A stretch of DNA of 64,000 bases from contig LBWX01000003.1 in NCBI GenBank assembly GCA_000995065.1, positions 22,304 through 86,303 of the forward strand. The letters are read 5' to 3'. Source of the DNA: a candidate division CPR2 bacterium GW2011_GWC2_39_35 (GTDB taxonomy: Bacteria > Patescibacteriota > CPR2). Shown here in pieces: positions 1,660 to 47,939 of the stretch (positions are counted from its first letter, which is position 1; every line of letters starts with the position of its first letter). A program made the translations under genes and the position numbers. The notes below the pieces were generated by a model, which had not been told where the DNA came from, did not search any database, and worked only from the letters and a program-made list of their open reading frames with translations.

Positions 1660-4170
1660 TTACTTCCCTTCTTCCACTTTCTCCACTTCTTCTTCAATCT
1701 TTTCCTCCGTAACTAGGGTTACAGACGAAACTTTGTCTTTCTCATTTAGCCTCATTACTCTTACGCCCTGAGTTACTCGGCCGATTTTGTTTACTTGTTT
1801 TAATGGAAGTCTAATTACCACGCCTTGTTTGGAAACAATTACTAAGTCTTCTTTTAGGTCTTCTATAATCCTTACGTCCACAACCGGTCCGGTTTTTGGT
1901 GTAACAGAGGCGGCTTTAATGCCTACACCGCCGCGACGGTGCGGGGCAAATTCTTCCACATCGGTTCTTTTGCCGTAGCCGTTTTCCATAATTACCATCA
2001 TCTGCTGGCCTTTTTTGTCTTTAACTACCACATCGGTACCCATAATTTGATCGGTACCTTTCATCTTCATGCCCCTAACTCCTCTGGCACCGCGACCCAT
2101 TGGTCTAACATCTTTTTCAGAGAATCTATTAGCCATGCCGGATTTAGTGGCCATGATGATTTCGTCTTCGCCTGATGTGGTCTTAACCCAGCAAAGAGCA
2201 TCACCCTTGTCTAGATTTAGGGCAATCAAACCATTTTTTCGAACATTTTCAAATTGCTCAATGGCAACTTTTTTAATAACCCCAAATTTAGTGGCAAAGA
2301 ACAGGTATTTAGCGTCGGTTTTTTCGTCTTTGGAAACAGTGATAACGGAAGTTACAATTTCTTCCGGTGCTAACTGAATGAAGTTTACAATTGGCGAACC
2401 CTTGGCAATCCTGGAACCCATTGGTATTTCGTATACCTTTGTTCTAAACACACGGCCTTTGTTAGTAAAGAACATGATTTCATCGTGGTTGTGGGTTAAA
2501 ATCATGTGCTCCACGATATCTTCTTCTTTGGTTTGCATGCCCATTACGCCCTTACCACCGCGCTGTTGCTGGCGGAAAGTAGAGGCTAAAATTCTTTTAA
2601 TGTAGTTGCCCTTTGTTAAGGCTACAATCACGGTTTCGTTGGCAACTAAATCTTCTTCAGAGAATTCGCCAAGTCTATTTTTGATGATTTTTGACTTTCT
2701 GGCGTCTCCGTATTTAGTCTTAATTTCACCTAACTCTTCTTTAATAACTGCTAAGATTTTTTCCGGATGGGCAAGTAAGTCTTCCAGGTGAGCAATTAAC
2801 TTTTGAAGCTCGGCGTATTCGTCTTCTATTTTCTTTCTTTCCAAGCCGGCTAAAGTTTGAAGCCTCATGTCGAGAATTGCTTGAGCCTGAATATCGGTCA
2901 GCTTAAACTTGGTCATCAAATTTGTTTTAGCTTCTTCTTTGGTGGCGGATGCACGGATAGTTTTTATGACTTCGTCAATTTGACCCAAAGCAATGAGCAA
3001 ACCTTCTAAAATATGAGCCCGCTCTTTGGCTTTTCTTAAATCGTACTCAGCACGGCGAGTAACTACATTTTGCCTGTGCTTTATAAACTCTTCTAAGATA
3101 GTTTTAAGCGACAAAAGTCTTGGCTGAATACCATCAATTAAGGCAATCATATTAAAATGCAAAGCTGTTTGCATGTTAGTCATTTTGTAGAGCTGGTTTA
3201 AGATTTTGTTTGGATAAGCGTCTTTTTTAAGATCCACAACTACGCGCACACCCTTTTTGTCGGATTCATCCCTAAGATCGGAAATGCCCACAATCTTTTT
3301 GTCTTTTACCAAGTCGGCAATCTTGGAAACTAAATCAGACTTGTTAACTTGGTACGGAATTTCGGAAACGATAATTTGGAAACCGCCTTTTTTAGATTCC
3401 ACAATTTCGGCATTTGCCCGGATAATGACTTTTCCGCGACCGGTGCCGTAGGCCTGGGCCACTTCGTCTGCGTAAACAGTTGCCCCGGTTGGAAAGTCCG
3501 GACCTTTTATAAACTTCATAAGGTCTTCAACTGCTGCTTCTGGGTTGTCGATCAAATGCGTTGTTGCGTCTATTACTTCATTTAAATTATGCGGCGGAAT
3601 GTTGGTGGCCATACCCACGGCAATTCCCATCTGGCCGTTTACAAGCAAGTTAGGGATTCTGGATGGCAAGACTACCGGCTCTTTTACGGAGCCATCGTAG
3701 TTTGGCATAAAGTCTACAGTATCTTTTTCGATGTCAGTAAGCATTTCTTCGGCAACTGAGGTCATTCTGGCTTCAGTGTACCTCATTGCAGCAGCTGAAT
3801 CACCGTCCATGGAGCCAAAGTTACCCTGGCCATCTACTTGCGGATATCGAAGCGAGAAGTCTTGGGCCATTCGGACCATGGAATCATAAACCGCCGTGTC
3901 GCCGTGCGGATGGTATTTACCTAAAACTTCACCAACTACGAAAGCCGACTTTTTGTACTTTGCGTTATGCCGAAGCCCAAGAGAATTCATGGCGTAAAGA
4001 ATACGCCTATGAACCGGTTTTAAACCGTCCCTTACGTCCGGCAAAGCACGGGACACAATAACCGACATTGCATAATCTAGGTAAGACTGCTGCATTTCAT
4101 CTGTCATTTCCCGGGGTTTTACGTAACCAACGTTAAACGGAAGTTGTTCACCTGAACTTTTTTTAGCCAT
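1660..4170 (-). CDS. gyrA: DNA gyrase subunit A
   Basis: [16 protein letters not shown] with the catalytic Tyr, GyrA-box QQRGGKG, C-terminal pinwheel repeats. Confidence 0.99.
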
Positions 4171-4189
4171 TTGCTCCTCTTTTTCTAGT

Positions 4190-4272
4190 TGTCATTGCAA
4201 GCCTTTAGACGAAGCAATCCCGTCCGATATTAACTAGATTGCCGCGATCGCTTAATTCTCCCTCGCAATGAC
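4190..4272. repeat. REP/RPE-like palindromic element
   Basis: GTCATTGC...GCAATC...GATTGC...GCAATGAC inverted architecture. Confidence 0.65.
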
Positions 4273-4385
4273 TGAAATATTCTTTCTTAATATGTCTTTT
4301 AACTTATCCATTATACCTAATTTGAAGCTAAAAAACAAGTTTCTCATACAGCTTTTTAAAACCGGAAAATCAAGAGTCTAAAGGG

Positions 4386-4414
4386 TTGAAAAAAAAGCCT
4401 TTTTCTGGTATAAT
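4386..4414 (+). promoter_or_regulatory. sigma70 promoter of the CoA-activase operon
   Basis: TTGAAA-17 nt-TATAAT with an extended -10 TG; GAGGAGG RBS before GTG 4502. Confidence 0.65.
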
Positions 4415-4501
4415 TCTCTAGCCGCGGAAGCGATAAATATAGATGTTCTAGATAGAAGGTTAAAATTTAAAAAATCGAATATAGTGAGGAGGAAAAACTA
4501 A

Positions 4502-5533
4502 GTGGTAAATGAAGCTAGAAATTCAAGAAAGCTAAGCGTGGGATTACCAGAAGCATTTGTCAGCCACTGGTGGAATGTTGGACTAGAGTATTTGCTCACC
4601 GCTTTAGGCGCTAATATTATCAAGTCTGGTAAAACCACTATGGCCAAATTCAATCGCGGTATCGAACTTGCACTTGCGGAATTCTGACCGGCAGTTAAGG
4701 TGGCAGTTGGCCATGTAGACTTTCTGGCAAAGAATCCGGAAGTCGATATTATCTTTCTTATCCGGCCTGTTGCTGAAGAGAGGCTGGAACTAAATTGCCC
4801 TTACATGTTGGGCTATCCAGACTACACCAGAATGCTCTTAAAGGAGCCGGGCAGGAAGATAAGATCACTACAAGTCGAGTTCAGATTACGGCCAGGAACC
4901 AAAGCCGGACAAGAGATCGAAGGCATCTTTAAATCAGAAATAGCTGAAATCGCCGAGATTTTCGGTGTAAGCTATCACTTGGTCAGGAAAGAATTCTTTG
5001 AAGCTCTGAAGCTGCAAAAAGAGCACGAGCGACAAGTATATCTAAACAAGTTGCTGCCGAACGGCCTGGAACAACCGGAATCCCCAAAATTCCGAGTACT
5101 TGCGTTGGGTCATTCGTACAACCTATGGGATAACATAATGTCGCATCACATCGTGTCAAAGATAATCGACCAGGGAGGACACGTAACCACCAAGGAAATG
5201 CTTGATAAAGAGCTCCTGTCTAAATGTGCAAAGCGCGGTCTTCCCAAAGAGCTATTTTGGACCCAGTCCAAACACCTTGCTGGTGCCGCTTTACAAGCTA
5301 TGAATACGGGATCGGTAGATGGGATTATGTTTATCCAAAGCTTCGGCTGCGGACCTGACGCAACTATCACTCCACTATTGGCTAGGGAAGCCAAAAAAGC
5401 AAAGATGCCTTTTTCGATCATCAACATAGACGTTCAAACTGCTGATGCCGGTATTGATACCAGGGTAGAAGCAACGGCGGACGCCTTGATTGAAGACATT
5501 TTAGAAGGAAGGAAGGTGAGAACGAAGTGTTAA
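4502..5533 (+). CDS. Acyl-CoA dehydratase activase-related protein (DUF2229/HGD-D-like) with an in-frame UGA at 4685-4687; putative selenoprotein or readthrough product, alternatively a pseudogene
   Basis: ORFs 4502-4687 and 4700-5533 are in frame, separated only by TGA-CCG-GCA-GTT-AAG. The joined sequence reads LAEF*PAVKVAVGHV, matching the family ExCxPxKxxxGHV motif. Later motifs NCPYMLGYPD, LGHSYN and SFGCGPD. Confidence 0.75.
4688..4727 (+). promoter_or_regulatory. SECIS-like hairpin immediately 3' of the UGA
   Basis: CCGG/CTGG and AGTT/GACT lower stems, GTGGC/GCCAT upper stem; AGTTG loop with G at position 2, starting 17 nt after the UGA. Confidence 0.4.
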
Positions 5534-6720
5534 AGAAGTTCTTAAACCAAGCTAAATGGCTGCTCACAAAGAAAAAGATAGCAGTTCCAAGAATGGGCAC
5601 TTTGTACTGGCTCCTTTACCCTCTTTCTAAAAGGTTAAAGTTTGAGCTTCAGGAGCAACCCAAAATTACTCAAAAAACGGTTAAGAAAGGATCGCTTCAT
5701 GCCGAAGAAGGTATGTGCTTACCTTTTAAATACGTTTTAGGTAACTTCATGGATGCCCTGGAAAAAGGTGCAAATATTGTGCTCTTTGCTGGTGGAATCG
5801 GGCCATGCCGTTTTGGCTACTACTCGCCCCTTTTTGAAGCCACACTAAAAGACCTGGGCTATCTATTTAGATTAATTTCGATAGAACCATGGTTTACAGG
5901 AAGAGGCTTCATAGACAAGTACCGTTTTTGGCGATCTTTTGCCAAACTAGGCAGGGTTAAAAACCCGATTCGGATTGCTTGGGCAATTTGGGAAAGCTTT
6001 TACATTGCCCAGTGCATTGATGAGATTACCAGTATGCTCAATTACACACGAGCAATAGAAGTCAAAAAAGGCTCAACCAATAGAGCATATAGGAAAGCAC
6101 TGGATCTGCTAGCCAACTCCAAGCATTATTGGCAAGCTAAGCGGAACTTCGAGACAGCCAAAGAGATGATGGCTGCTATTAAAACCGATGCTTCCAAACT
6201 GAAAGGCGTCGTGGGAATCGTTGGTGAATTCTACGTAGTTCTGGAACCATCTGCCAATATGCGAATTATCGAGTGGCTAAATGATCATGGCATTGCTGTT
6301 ATTTGCTCGATATTTGTTACCGATTGGGTTGGCCCGGATACTTCACCCAAGGTTGCCCACATTAACAAAATCAAAGCCCATGAATTGGCTAAAAAGGAAG
6401 ATACATTCCACAGATGGTGTGGCGGCGATTGCACAGCAAACGTTGGTCACGCAGTCTATTTGATGGATCACCTTAACGTAGATGCAATCATCCAACTGCT
6501 TCCATTTACCTGCATGCCGGATACAATGGCAACGGTCGGCCTAATGGCAGTCACTGAAAAACGTGATATTCCGTTTGCCCGTTATATCTACGATGAACAT
6601 TCAGCGCTAGCAGGACTGGAAACAAGATGGGAAGGATTAATCGACACCATCGAGATGAAAAGACTGGACAAAGAACTTCATGAAATAGCTCAGAGAGAGG
6701 CGGTGCGAAGCAAAGTATGA
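5527..6720 (+). CDS. 2-hydroxyacyl-CoA dehydratase/reductase-like Fe-S subunit (HGD-D/PlsR-like)
   Basis: EGMCLPFK, GPCRFGYY, VGIVGEFYV, LPFTCMP, DEHSALAGLETRWE motifs. Confidence 0.85.
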   Translation: MLKKFLNQAKWLLTKKKIAVPRMGTLYWLLYPLSKRLKFELQEQPKITQKTVKKGSLHAEEGMCLPFKYVLGNFMDALEKGANIVLFAGGIGPCRFGYYSPLFEATLKDLGYLFRLISIEPWFTGRGFIDKYRFWRSFAKLGRVKNPIRIAWAIWESFYIAQCIDEITSMLNYTRAIEVKKGSTNRAYRKALDLLANSKHYWQAKRNFETAKEMMAAIKTDASKLKGVVGIVGEFYVVLEPSANMRIIEWLNDHGIAVICSIFVTDWVGPDTSPKVAHINKIKAHELAKKEDTFHRWCGGDCTANVGHAVYLMDHLNVDAIIQLLPFTCMPDTMATVGLMAVTEKRDIPFARYIYDEHSALAGLETRWEGLIDTIEMKRLDKELHEIAQREAVRSKV

Positions 6721-41268: not shown

Positions 41269-41348
41269 AGCTTTGCGATTATACCTCAAAAATGATCATA
41301 AAAAAAGAATACCGGACTTCTTGTTAAGAAGCCCGGCATCGGGTCAAA

Positions 41349-41696
41349 CTAAAAATGGGGACAAAGATAGTATCGTATCAAACGACTCACTTCATATGGA
41401 TGGAGAGTTCCCTCATCCTGTGCCAAATAAGCATACCCATCGATCATTCGATCGTATATAAACTCTGCAAGGGTACCTAGACTCAAAAAAGATATGTTCT
41501 CGAATCCGGAGCTTTTTAGCTCTGGAAAGATATCTAAGAGCGAAGCATTGAATTGATCGGCACAATCTTTGCCATCGTATCTCCCGCAAAGATTTAGATC
41601 TGGTAAAGCCAGTTTCTTGTCTATATCTAGAATTTGTATTGCAACTATTTCCATTACTAGCTTCATATGATCTTCGTCGTATAGTCCGTTTATCAA
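41349..41696 (-). CDS. Hypothetical protein, remote acyl-carrier-protein-like pattern
   Basis: AGGAGG RBS; followed by a terminator hairpin at about 41302-41340. Confidence 0.6.
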   Translation of the reverse strand: MINGLYDEDHMKLVMEIVAIQILDIDKKLALPDLNLCGRYDGKDCADQFNASLLDIFPELKSSGFENISFLSLGTLAEFIYDRMIDGYAYLAQDEGTLHPYEVSRLIRYYLCPHF

Positions 41697-41714
41697 GACA
41701 TTACCTCCTGCGCT

Positions 41715-41918
41715 CTATTGTTCTGCTTCCTCCCCTTCTGTTTTTTGGGCCTCTCCTAGCAACGTGGCAAGCTCTCTCTTCATAGCCTTTATTACTTGAC
41801 GCAAAGCCTCAGGCCTATCTTCTATTCTTGCTTCAATCGACATTGTTAAACTGCACCTCCTTCTCTGTAAAGCGTGGGTAGCGACTACCATTTTATCAGG
41901 ATTTATGACACCAAACAA
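41715..41918 (-). CDS. Small hypothetical protein (start uncertain, possibly near 41850)
   Basis: Internal AGGAGG RBS before MTMSIEAR; lies between co-oriented ORFs. Confidence 0.4.
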   Translation of the reverse strand: MFGVINPDKMVVATHALQRRRCSLTMSIEARIEDRPEALRQVIKAMKRELATLLGEAQKTEGEEAEQ

Positions 41919-41937
41919 TCATTTTCGCGAGCAAAGG

Positions 41938-42303
41938 TTATAATAACTCAGAACACAGAGGCACGTCAGACGAATTTGCCTCTTTGTCGGCAACCGCAAC
42001 CTTCACAAAGGAAACGGCCGCTTCGCCCAAAACATCGGCAAGATTCTCGATGTCCAAAACGTTTGCGTATTGTACGTCGGAAATCTCGAGGTTACAAAAA
42101 TCTCTCGCGATTGCTGAAACAAGAACATCTTTTACAGTGTCGTCAAGAGGCATTTGTGAGTGGAATCCGAAACACTTCTTTCCGGGGAAGGCCTCGCAAT
42201 ACACCTTCTCCAAATACTTAAGAACTGATGTCCAATCGTACGTAACGCGGCCCATCAGACCTAATGTAGCCGCCCGCTTTACAACCGAAATCTCTTCTGC
42301 CAT
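41938..42303 (-). CDS. Hypothetical protein, remote acyl-carrier-protein-like C-terminal half
   Basis: GAGGAG RBS; DFCNLEISD...IENLADVL. Confidence 0.6.
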   Translation of the reverse strand: MAEEISVVKRAATLGLMGRVTYDWTSVLKYLEKVYCEAFPGKKCFGFHSQMPLDDTVKDVLVSAIARDFCNLEISDVQYANVLDIENLADVLGEAAVSFVKVAVADKEANSSDVPLCSELL

Positions 42304-42469
42304 ATGTGTCTCCTCTCGCTAGCACCTCGTTTCATACAATCCGTTGTCTAAAAGATGTTAAGTTTTATAACTACTATCCATTGTCCAAAGCCAAACCATT
42401 TTATCACAAATGACAATCGATTTCAAAAAAAATTTTGCGAGAATTTTTGCGAGAATTTTAGCAAGCTTC

Positions 42470-42517
42470 AAAAAAAAACGACCTGATATCTTTCTATGCG
42501 AGCAAAGATACCAGGTC
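42470..42517 (-). terminator. Intrinsic terminator after spoVS
   Basis: CGACCTGATATCTTT / AAAGATACCAGGTCG hairpin followed by a U-run on the minus strand. Confidence 0.7.
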
Positions 42518-42548
42518 GACCCTGATCTATGGGGCGGGTGAGCCAATT

Positions 42549-42818
42549 CTACTTGGGCTCAACGAGCAGCTTGATTGCGGTTCGCTCTTCGCCATTTATT
42601 TTGAGCTCCGCAAACGAAGGTTTGCAGACCAAATCTATGCCGCCGGGCGCTAAGAATCCGCGCGCGATGGCGATGGCCTTTACTGCTTGATTTAAGGCGC
42701 CGGCTCCGATCACTTGCATTTCTGCGGCTCCTTGCGTCCTTACCACTCCTGCTATAGCGCCGGCCACGGAGTTGGGGCTCGATTTCGATGAAACCTTTAA
42801 TACTTCTGCTACTCTCAT
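42549..42818 (-). CDS. spoVS: Stage V sporulation protein S family (Alba-like RNA-binding protein)
   Basis: LKVSSKSSPNSVAGAIAG...IGAGALNQAVKAIAIARGF...GEERTAIK. Confidence 0.95.
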   Translation of the reverse strand: MRVAEVLKVSSKSSPNSVAGAIAGVVRTQGAAEMQVIGAGALNQAVKAIAIARGFLAPGGIDLVCKPSFAELKINGEERTAIKLLVEPK

Positions 42819-43033
42819 TTCTGCTCCTTCTTCATCGTTTTCTGCTTCTTCTATCCTTCTCTATATAAAGGCTTTGTAGAGCCGAAATTGTATTTTTAAA
42901 ATTCTATCCTTTTCCAAACAGCCAAGTTATTATACATCAAAAACACTGACATGACAAGACTTTTTTGGACAGGATATTATCGCTTTGCATTGACATTAAA
43001 GTTTCTCCGCTAAGGCCGCATGCATATAAAAAC

Positions 43034-43597
43034 CCCCGAAAATTACACAATATAATCAAACCATATGGCCTGAAAATATATATGTAACTTTCGGGGTATA
43101 AACCTTAAGGGAAAGCCAAATCAATTATCCCAGCTTTAAAGCCAAAACCTGGTGACCAACTTTTCCTTAAGAAGAATGTGATCATTAAGCTTAAGTCAAA
43201 AAAAGCTTTTGCGGCTGTATCTTGCCTGTTCTTTTTGTAAACTTAAGCCTAATAAATCAGAGATGCCAATCTTTGTATCCAGCAAACAGCGCCGTATAAA
43301 TATATTCCAGCATCTCCGAAAGAGTTTTCAGGAAGAAGCCACGAGTCACAGTCAGATGATCTTAGTCCACATCATCCCAGCTTACTTTGCCAGCTTCTTC
43401 CTGAAGTTTATAAGTGTTGCAGGGAAAAGCCCAATTCTTCCATCCAGAGCGTGTCTCCGGTTGATTATTTACCAGCTTTTCCCTGCAAATTGAAATTGTC
43501 GTTTAACACCAATCCAGCACGGGCTAAAAGCGAATCAGAAGCGCCAGCTTGAAGGGACCAGCAAATTATGCCAAAATAATACAATCAGCGCTTCTGA
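43034..43597 (-). ncRNA. Array of about 7 stem/internal-loop/hairpin units with dual variable segments (candidate bridge-RNA/TIGR-like guide array)
   Basis: Units at 43034-43096, 43104-43171, 43185-43252, 43257-43319, 43327-43405, 43417-43488 and 43535-43597. Each has a 10-14 bp outer stem and an inner hairpin; five have ~16x16 nt loops bounded by conserved motifs. Confidence 0.8.
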
Positions 43598-43618
43598 AAA
43601 TTAATAGAGAAATTAGTA

Positions 43619-44734
43619 TCACCTTAGATATTCTTTCCACAGATATTTGAGCAATCGCTCTAGCTGTTTGACTCTGCGCAATTTTCTTTTTTTCTCCTCA
43701 TCCGTTAAAACAGCGGCGATACCGATATTTCTGGCAATTTCTTTACCTCTTTTAGAGGTAGTGGCAAGTAAATAAAGGTATTGCCTAATCTCGCCTCTTT
43801 TCCTGGATATCCTTGGTTTCCCCTTGCTATCCATTCTGGTTACAGCCAAGCCGCAGTAGCTTCGAAGCTCGCGCCAATTTTCCCATCTGCGCCAAGCAAG
43901 AAGCCCCAAAAGAAGGACGATAGTATTTCCGCCAAAATCATCCATGGCTGGATGTAAGTCAAACTCGTTCCTTAAACGCCGGTGCGCTTCTTCCTTCAAT
44001 AGCGCTATCTCATCAAATCTTGCCAGCGACTCTTTAAGCTTTTCAGCTTCGCCTTTCCTAAAATCTATGGGGATATCTAAGGCGAGTGATTTAGCGGCCA
44101 GCTTTCTTACTTCCGGGATGAGACTACTTTTTTTCAGCGATTCCGGGAAAGGATCTTCCAGAACATGACGCATTTTTTTTGTTGTCCAGATAGGCGGTTG
44201 CGGAAGCGGAATTGGTTTATCGTTTGATCCCCCGACCTTAATAACTTCCGGAAACAAAACCACCATGCGGTCCAAGATGTCGTGCTTTATGCGCCGGCCT
44301 TCATTGGTCAGCTCAAGATACCTTTTGGCAAGCTGTACGATGAACGGCTCGTGTTCCGATGCTGTTTTGGCATGATTTAATCCGCCAAAAAACGAAAACC
44401 CCGACATACCCATGTTCAAGGCACTTTTTAGAGTCTTTTCAACCGAGCCTGCAGGGCCTCTTTTGTTTCCGTCTGTTTTGATTGAGATATAAAAAATCTC
44501 GAACCCTCTAGCTCTTAAACTGTAAGCTAGGGGTGTCGCCCATCTTTTATTCCCCACGAATACGATCCTTGAAACGCCGGACTTTTTCGCTGCCTTTTCG
44601 ACCTCCCTTAGTCCCGCATGGTCATTGGCTACTTGTATTTCTTCATCGTCTTTTACAACAGTAAAAAAGTTTCGGTGCATTGCAATCCCAATTGCGGGTG
44701 TCTTCGCCTTTTCCTTTAAAAGGACTAAAGACAT
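43619..44734 (-). CDS. IS110-family-derived protein with a degenerate RuvC (DEDD) domain and a retained Transposase_20/Nop-like C-terminal domain
   Basis: IGIAMHR (cf. IGIDVHK), IVFVGNKRW (cf. VxMEATGxYW), KTD; C-terminal LRSYCGLAV..DSKGKPRISRKRGEIRQYLY; GAAGGGA RBS before ATG 44734. Confidence 0.8.
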   Translation of the reverse strand: MSLVLLKEKAKTPAIGIAMHRNFFTVVKDDEEIQVANDHAGLREVEKAAKKSGVSRIVFVGNKRWATPLAYSLRARGFEIFYISIKTDGNKRGPAGSVEKTLKSALNMGMSGFSFFGGLNHAKTASEHEPFIVQLAKRYLELTNEGRRIKHDILDRMVVLFPEVIKVGGSNDKPIPLPQPPIWTTKKMRHVLEDPFPESLKKSSLIPEVRKLAAKSLALDIPIDFRKGEAEKLKESLARFDEIALLKEEAHRRLRNEFDLHPAMDDFGGNTIVLLLGLLAWRRWENWRELRSYCGLAVTRMDSKGKPRISRKRGEIRQYLYLLATTSKRGKEIARNIGIAAVLTDEEKKRKLRRVKQLERLLKYLWKEYLR

Positions 44735-44873
44735 AAAATCACATCCCTTCAAATTGTTAAAAAACTCTATCATTATCTAGAATCCAAGATTTGCCGAACA
44801 GTTACTTATAACACAAAATATGCTAAAAATCAAACATTTTAGCTTAAATTTGCAGCTTTATAGATTGAATAGA

Positions 44874-47792: not shown

Positions 47793-47939
47793 CTGAACCA
47801 CCCTCACTTTTTTGTCATCCCCGTGAAAACTTAGGATCCAGAAGGCTTGGGGGCATAGTGAGCTTCCTGGATTCCCGCCTGCTCGGGAATGACAACTAGA
47901 GTTATTTTTCTTGTTTTTTAAAAAGTGAGGGTGGTTCAG
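47793..47939. repeat. 20-bp perfect inverted repeat enclosing an RPE-like palindromic element (47813-47894)
   Basis: CTGAACCACCCTCACTTTTT / AAAAAGTGAGGGTGGTTCAG flank TGTCATCCCCG..GGATCCAG / CTGGATTCC..CGGGAATGACA. Confidence 0.7.

Follow-up and report, generated by a model that had tools for sequence, protein, structure and literature searches.

An apparently catalytically dead IS110-like protein adjoining an array of stem-loop guide units in a candidate division CPR2 bacterium

The described systems closest to the locus analysed here are the stem-loop TIGR-TasR systems of CPR bacteria and the IS110 recombinases. Two CPR TasR proteins with an inactive RuvC domain, PateTasR and CsTasR, are reported to bind stem-loop guide RNAs and DNA with no cutting, and CsTasR and a TasA repress reporters; in the accessible part of that preprint the natural targets and the acquisition of spacers are left open (Xu et al., bioRxiv 10.64898/2026.09.09.750476). 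A TIGR target is described as reading segment A and then segment B in reverse complement, and TIGR has been proposed as ancestral to IS110 (Faure et al., PMC12045711). For IS621, residues D11, E60, D102, D105 and S241 are each reported as essential (Hiraizumi, PMC11208158), and CazIS110-1 is described with a mostly single-loop RNA of about 77 nt that occurs naturally (10.1101/2025.10.25.684509). Nop5, in turn, is held to be derived from IS110 (Vaysset et al., PMC11213020). The TIGR papers leave open the direction of evolution between IS110 and TIGR and the way in which arrays gain spacers. The family described below bears on the first question through its IS110-like anatomy combined with a TIGR-like RNA organisation, and on the second through array duplicates in which the stems are fixed and the guides exchanged.

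The window, a 64,000-nt stretch of contig LBWX01000003.1 from the CPR2 bacterium GW2011_GWC2_39_35, carries the gene and its nearest neighbours as follows.

44805..44833, minus strand: candidate sigma-70 promoter, TTGATT-17-TATAAG with TG upstream, picked out by eye (the promoter scanner gave no call)
44739..44749, minus strand: Shine-Dalgarno-like site AAGGGATGTGA before the ATG at 44734, from the sequence
43619..44734, minus strand: IS110-like protein of 371 aa, catalytically dead as judged from sequence, fold model and alignments
about aa 13-115 of this protein: RuvC-fold N-terminus
middle part of this protein: coiled coil with a helical insertion of ~65-70 aa (aa ~160-226)
C-terminal part of this protein: Nop/Tnp domain
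42549-42818: spoVS gene
41349-41696, 41715-41918 and 41938-42303: small ORFs without an assigned Pfam domain

The reading frame is intact from its ATG and is preceded by the Shine-Dalgarno-like site, as the original prediction had stated. That prediction also saw no second copy in the window, and the gene proves to be single copy across the whole 1.12-Mb genome, where it sits after uvrA and where no second PF02371 match was found. At all loci read, the family gene is chromosomal and flanked by housekeeping genes; the neighbours differ everywhere, and no neighbour that could encode a partner enzyme is common to the family loci. The expected synteny with uvrA is not kept across relatives, uvrA being present at two of seven loci and on opposite sides. 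In three genomes of the same class uvrA and uvrC lie side by side or almost so; here the interval between them (41290-44870) holds the three small ORFs, two of which may be acyl-carrier-like by eye, the spoVS gene, and the dead IS110-like gene with its array. Upstream of uvrA, at 47793-47939, lies a perfect 20-bp inverted repeat with REP-like hairpins inside.

An AlphaFold2 model of the 371-aa protein (pLDDT 89.2) predicts a sheet of RNase H/RuvC type, a pair of long helices that carry a helical insertion, and a C-terminal domain of Nop type. In a Foldseek search with this model, ranks 1-10 are IS621 and ISCro4 chains, and TaTasR is 29th. VIA-align, for which an rmsd near 10 Å refers to whole chains, gives Z 12.1 against ISCro4 (rmsd 9.5, 261 aligned), Z 11.3 against IS621, Z 9.6 against TaTasR (rmsd 10.6, 239 aligned) and Z 9.0-9.4 against Nop5, Nop56/58 and Prp31. 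The structural comparison with IS621, TasR and Nop5 that had been suggested as a check therefore puts the IS110 recombinases ahead of TaTasR and Nop5, and on the two highest scores the RuvC, coiled-coil and Tnp/Nop fold of IS110 appears to be present. Pfam returns only a weak Transposase_20 match for the protein (E 0.0026, under the cut-off), and at E <= 0.5 Transposase_20 is matched in 17 and DEDD_Tnp_IS110 in 12 of 49 family members. A PDB sequence search with the protein gave no match, and one with the family profile gave unrelated matches only (E at least 0.017). Matches in the ESM Atlas, usable only as a lead, comprise IS110 clusters and, at 0.94, a 508-aa cluster that is mostly unnamed.

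The active site was read from an alignment of 49 sequences taken from homologue searches, mostly longer than 300 aa, with fragments and five IS110 hits excluded. The first DEDD site corresponds to Ala18, with Ala in 33 and Asp in none of the 46 filled rows, and the second to Val60/Gly61, with Glu in none of 48 filled rows; the original observations of an Ala at the first Asp and no Glu at the second position hold for the whole family. The further claim that KTDGNK keeps one catalytic Asp was misregistered. D88, the Asp of this motif, stands directly after strand beta5, ~10 residues ahead of the IS110 ‘KtD..D’ site, and its column is acidic in 25 of 34 filled rows, with Glu in 22 and Asp in 3. 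By profile alignment to IS110, the third site falls near G96/S97 and the fourth near E99/K100, and the columns of G96, S97, E99 and K100 hold Asp in 0, 4, 1 and 0 of 49 rows. Because these sites are mostly non-acidic and the first two acids are absent, the alignment indicates that all four catalytic acids, not three, are lost as conserved residues. Ser303 lies at the offset of the IS110 catalytic Ser and is followed by Lys, not Gly; the position is Ser in 24 of 49 rows, with Lys or Arg next in 38. Neither the DEDD tetrad nor the conserved catalytic Ser-Gly of IS110 is found in the family, and the window protein is not an IS110 recombinase. The dead RuvC domain has a conserved motif of its own, with G61 in 48, N62 in 46 and W65 in 44 of 49 rows, and the retention of these residues indicates that the domain is under constraint.

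Pseudogene decay had been named as an outcome that would speak against a dead binder, and the family does not present it. The loss is family-wide, in full-length and diverged proteins. Among six family genes compared at the DNA level, dS is saturated in 14 of 15 pairs and dN is 0.48-0.99, so that the dN/dS ratio proposed earlier as a check is not estimable. The reading frame is unbroken at six of the seven loci holding the whole gene, the split one being L008. At that locus, which is the same as L005/L007, the homologue is divided into two overlapping frames around 4100-5400. On these sequence comparisons, with dN at 0.5-1.0 and dS saturated, the family shows conserved inactivation, not decay.

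An array of stem-loop units adjoins the gene. The region 42950-43625, directly downstream, folds at z = -9.0, and every array stretch tested folds better on the minus strand. Five units follow the gene at 43105-43597, each folding at z -2.6 to -7.6. The first half of a unit consists of an outer stem, CUG(G/A) or UUGG, 10-12 variable nt, YG and an inner hairpin; the second half, after that hairpin, consists of CUG(G/A), 10-11 variable nt, UG or GG and the outer stem. Reading away from the gene, the array contains the following.

43535..43597, minus strand: guide unit 1 (fold z -3.6, pattern), composed of stem, CUGA, 11 variable nt, UG, inner hairpin, CUGG, 11 variable nt, UG, stem
43492..43532, minus strand: spacer region with a lone CUGG box and 12 nt, a possible remnant half unit (z 0.05, no significant fold)
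43417..43488, minus strand: guide unit 2 (fold z -7.6, pattern)
43327..43405, minus strand: guide unit 3, with the longest inner hairpin (fold z -6.4, pattern)
43257..43319, minus strand: guide unit 4 (fold z -3.6, pattern)
43184..43252, minus strand: unit-sized hairpin without clear boxes, a degenerate unit or something other (fold z -5.6)
43105..43172, minus strand: guide unit 5, with UUGG as first box (fold z -2.6, pattern)
43030..43098, minus strand: long closed hairpin followed by a U run, terminator-like and likely the transcript end (fold z -8.1)

A pattern derived from the units has six matches in the genome, five of them at this array, for which the result is circular, and one elsewhere. 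An Rfam microRNA match on the terminal hairpin was below threshold and was dismissed as chance.

GCUG(G/A) stem-loop units stand upstream of the gene, downstream of it or both at seven of eight family loci, and the arrays often end in terminator-like hairpins. The same seven of eight loci count holds for the TIGR-type layout, that is, a Nop-domain protein with two-spacer stem-loop units and symmetric boxes, and the family has stem-loop TIGR architecture. Similar units were found at L001 (five), L008, L009, L010, L011 and L012; those of L009 and L010 have a looser second box, and the strict unit pattern misses most of them. At L004 (G275) the homologue is intact and hairpins lie downstream, with no clear boxed units; these hairpins are possibly a divergent guide type.

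Guide segments have been replaced within conserved stems. At L009, array and terminator blocks are duplicated before and after the gene (3440-4075 and 5250-5790), and between the two copies the stems are identical at 56 of 60 nt (93%) and the boxes at 18 of 20, against 22 of 45 (49%) for the first guide segment, which one unit retains at 8 of 9 positions. The blocks of L010 are likewise duplicated, at 3740-4030 and 5235-5580, with an L009-like pattern by eye. Stems that are kept around segments that vary are the marks of guide segments inside a fixed scaffold. Across 18 curated units, free variation is seen at positions 1-10 in both segments, and no IS110-type core complementarity between segments A and B was found, which fits tandem, symmetric guides. 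At L008 a near-identical guide unit of ~70 nt, differing at one stem base, lies on both sides of the gene like a direct repeat, and these flanking units may record how gene and array get inserted or duplicated.

The family is patchily distributed. A search of 1.84 billion representatives gives 56 clusters (50% identity) that reach E <= 1e-10, and its named homologues are from Patescibacteria. In GTDB samples, the window's own genome is the only one among 32 of its class with the gene, and a true member occurs in three of 401 genomes of the phylum, next to a weak match to an ordinary IS110 fragment. No match was found in IMG/VR or among INPHARED phages, and a search for related loci gave no relative in genome or viral contigs and one in metagenomes. 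A degenerate motif scan found five genome loci and no viral ones, an undercount, given that only 26 of 50 long family proteins conform to a similar protein pattern. Two very divergent family members, P0057 (544 aa) and P0058 (450 aa), have long insertions.

We think it probable that the protein is a programmable, non-cutting RNA-guided DNA binder, directed by its array in the manner of TIGR-TasR, that probably blocks transcription of foreign mobile DNA. The fold model, the family-wide DEDD loss, the array, its co-occurrence with the gene across loci and the replacement of guides are what the present analysis contributes directly, and the loss of the tetrad together with similar arrays at seven of eight loci supports, as far as sequences can, the original view of a catalytically dead protein acting as effector of the adjacent array. 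By analogy, the function is most likely that of the dead CPR TasR proteins, and a dead RuvC-Nop repressor in CPR is not in itself new. Following TIGR-TasR and the target-binding loop of IS110, the array would be transcribed together with the gene and its RNA processed into single units, of which a predicted protein dimer would hold one. The two variable segments of the unit would pair, in tandem, with opposite strands of a DNA site of ~18-20 bp. The bound DNA would not be cut, and transcription of the foreign mobile DNA would probably be blocked. That the targets are foreign rather than own genes we infer only from the turnover of guides and from the lack of self-matches.

The origin of the family is less settled. 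Descent from a long-type IS110 transposase seems to us slightly the better supported origin, ahead of one from inside the published Tas clades. The bolder form of this idea, a second and independent birth of a TIGR-like system, in which a long IS110 lost its active site, multiplied its bridge loop into an array and was kept as a silencer of foreign DNA, we put at a little under an even chance. Its main competitor, which we regard as plausible though somewhat short of even, keeps the same mechanism and makes the family a very divergent branch of the published CPR stem-loop TIGR-TasR, perhaps already in the Tas catalogue. The two were compared using material from GTDB, namely eight CPR TasR loci of the published type and many active IS110, with eight phage Tas-like proteins. 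The TasR branch is favoured by the shared hosts and dead RuvC, by inner hairpins and by arrays that can lie on either side of the gene. The profiles speak against it: in HHalign the family profile reaches 99.1% over 333 columns with long IS110 and 95.6% with short IS110, as opposed to 77.8% over 82 columns with CPR Tas and 38% with phage Tas. The N-terminal domain alone gives 92.4 and 84.8% to IS110 against 1.5% to CPR TasR, for which the profile is shallower. CPR Tas and phage Tas match each other at 99.1%. The CPR Tas profile also matches long IS110 strongly (98.7%, 270 columns), which counts against an IS110 origin of the family and may say something about where CPR TasR came from. The coiled-coil insertion, with a median of 70 aa in the family, resembles that of long IS110 (72) and not those of CPR Tas (18) or phage Tas (2), and its start and end motifs are alike in the family and long IS110, although the insertion alone scores weakly (6.7%).

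The trees give the IS110 origin no advantage and do not settle the matter. They are unrooted, and TaTasR- and PateTasR-type sequences are absent from their alignments. In quick trees the family sits on a very long branch outside both the IS110 and the Tas groups. With the Nop domain only, a tree joining the family to CPR Tas exceeds the free quick tree by 13.3 lnL (AU p 0.82), and one joining it to long IS110 does so by 8.1 lnL (AU p 0.72). In the full-length tree all 19 IS110 rows fall on one side (SH-aLRT 98), and the grouping of the family with long IS110 has an AU p of 0.051. The AU tests reject neither placement. Profiles and insertion would place the family outside the Tas sequence clade, and the AU tests allow sisterhood with CPR Tas.

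The boxes and the catalogues also weigh against the TasR branch. Family boxes are CUG(G/A)...YG with 10-12 nt between them, compared with mostly CGA/CUA...UG and 9 nt in the eight CPR TasR loci, and the family-type pattern has just two matches in those eight. These loci (L034-L041) come from eight Patescibacteria genomes with published-type dead TasR (IGIRHR-like ... FNRRP) and CGA/CUA-9nt-UG stem-loop arrays; L033 and L042 encode more divergent Tas-like proteins. TIGRFinder is described as using a box C of CCA/CGA/CTA/CAA, a 9-nt (8-10) spacer and a box D of TG/CG, and at eight family loci units of this type were found nowhere downstream and as two single matches upstream. Faure et al. allow spacers of 8-12 nt (PMC12045711), and by their looser definition the gap to the family is narrower. 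Ten family motifs and the accessions were absent from the 9,182 rows examined of Table S1 of Faure et al., in which the CPR TasR motif IGIRHR occurs 123 times; the text names 21,385 proteins, and this difference leaves room for the TasR branch. None of the 71 proteins screened carries the PateTasR residue fingerprint, the family proteins having at most 5 of its 18 residues. No description of the family was found in the literature searched, whose coverage excludes most subscription papers, and the accessible part of a genome-wide ncRNA survey (10.64898/2026.10.21.760802) does not mention it. Because boxes and spacers fall outside the TIGRFinder rules and the Pfam score is below the cut-off, existing catalogues may miss the family.

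A different reading changes the targets. In TldR, a group of TnpB-derived dead repressors, an RNA-guided transposon enzyme has been turned into a non-cutting regulator, with one guide per locus against conserved targets, and the protein described here could likewise regulate genes of its own cell or of the cell that it lives on. A chromosomal, single-copy gene between housekeeping genes would suit such a role, as would the absence of matches in INPHARED and IMG/VR. The target searches give the reading no support. In the own genome, neither tandem nor overlapping geometry yielded a target above mismatched-pair controls; the best match, of an AT-rich unit with one mismatch and a 1-nt overlap, was equalled or beaten by 3 of 20 mismatched pairs, and the IS110 14-bp geometry gave no perfect cognate match at six length settings. 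In three other host genomes, six guide pairs had three one-mismatch matches against five control matches. The IMG/VR scan, which left out two AT-rich units, gave six distinct sites for three guide pairs (three gap-0 matches of one pair being one identical sequence) against 11 stretches for two wrong-order controls. The guide register was assumed in these searches, so true targets could have been missed. Guides that turn over between duplicated arrays and a patchy distribution (three of 401 phylum genomes, and none of the 31 others in the class) also argue against TldR-like regulation of host genes, an idea suggested by the original prediction's comparison with TldR and one that we consider unlikely.

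It has also to be asked whether the guides pair with RNA. A Nop5-like scaffold that recruits a modifying enzyme encoded elsewhere would fit with Nop5, Nop56/58 and Prp31 being among the structural matches (Z 9.0-9.4) and with a dead RuvC domain that keeps conserved surface motifs. With ten guides, however, no perfect antisense match of at least 9 nt was found in ~15 kb covering the rRNA regions and tRNAs of the own genome, the best being 8 nt; there is no conserved neighbour gene, and the IS110 recombinases rank above Nop5, which leaves this reading very improbable. Least probable of all is a mobile element that is still active or complemented in trans, or else an IS110 relic in decay: variable genomic context, one split gene, the L008 flanking unit and the duplicated arrays of L009 and L010 could mark recombination, but four acids reported as essential in IS621 (PMC11208158) are lost, the genome has no other PF02371 protein, no unit matches the locus or the genome, 14 of 15 pairs have saturated dS, with dN below 1, and no excision joint was found in four contig sets of one study, such contigs dropping rare variants.

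If the independent birth from IS110 were true, it would trace a route from IS110 to a guide array, the reverse of what the published model holds with TIGR as the ancestor, and the duplicated arrays would offer a direct handle on guide replacement. If the protein binds as predicted, it would be a programmable DNA binder that is compact (371 aa) and by nature does not cut.

Among the known systems, TldR shares with the family the idea of an RNA-guided transposon enzyme that no longer cuts; it is an unrelated protein, with one guide per locus where the family has multi-unit arrays of changing guides. With the Nop5/Nop56/58 box C/D proteins and Prp31 it shares an inactive RuvC-like N-terminus and a Nop fold (PMC11213020), but it is bacterial, has no methyltransferase or L7Ae neighbour and no rRNA/tRNA antisense of at least 9 nt; among the neighbouring genes the fibrillarin and L7Ae partners of a box C/D snoRNP were not found. 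IS110 (IS621, ISCro4 and the long-type P0069 and L023) gives the closest full-length matches in both structure and profile, and an LFPE...LA..SL insertion is common to the family and the long type. In its stem/guide/hairpin/guide layout each unit resembles a single IS110 bridge-RNA loop, and the loop RNA of CazIS110-1, at ~77 nt, is of the same size. In contrast to IS110, the family has lost all four DEDD acids and does not conserve the Ser; it is single copy with no sign of element ends; and where IS110 has one pair of target and donor loops with guides that overlap at the core, the window array has five independent single loops with guides that lack core overlap. The paired loops, the match to the own junction and the overlapping core of a bridge RNA were not found, and in the folded flanks of 13 active IS110 loci nothing clear was seen by eye in the way of CUGG-boxed loops. 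With the stem-loop TIGR-TasR of CPR the family has in common a dead RuvC, coiled coil and Nop protein, Patescibacteria as hosts, a single-gene organisation and dual-spacer arrays with inner hairpins up- or downstream; the two differ in the length of the insertion (~18 aa against the 70 aa of the long IS110 type) and show little sequence kinship. Next to these systems it appears to form a separate family, with IS110-like anatomy, boxes of its own and a visible exchange of guides.
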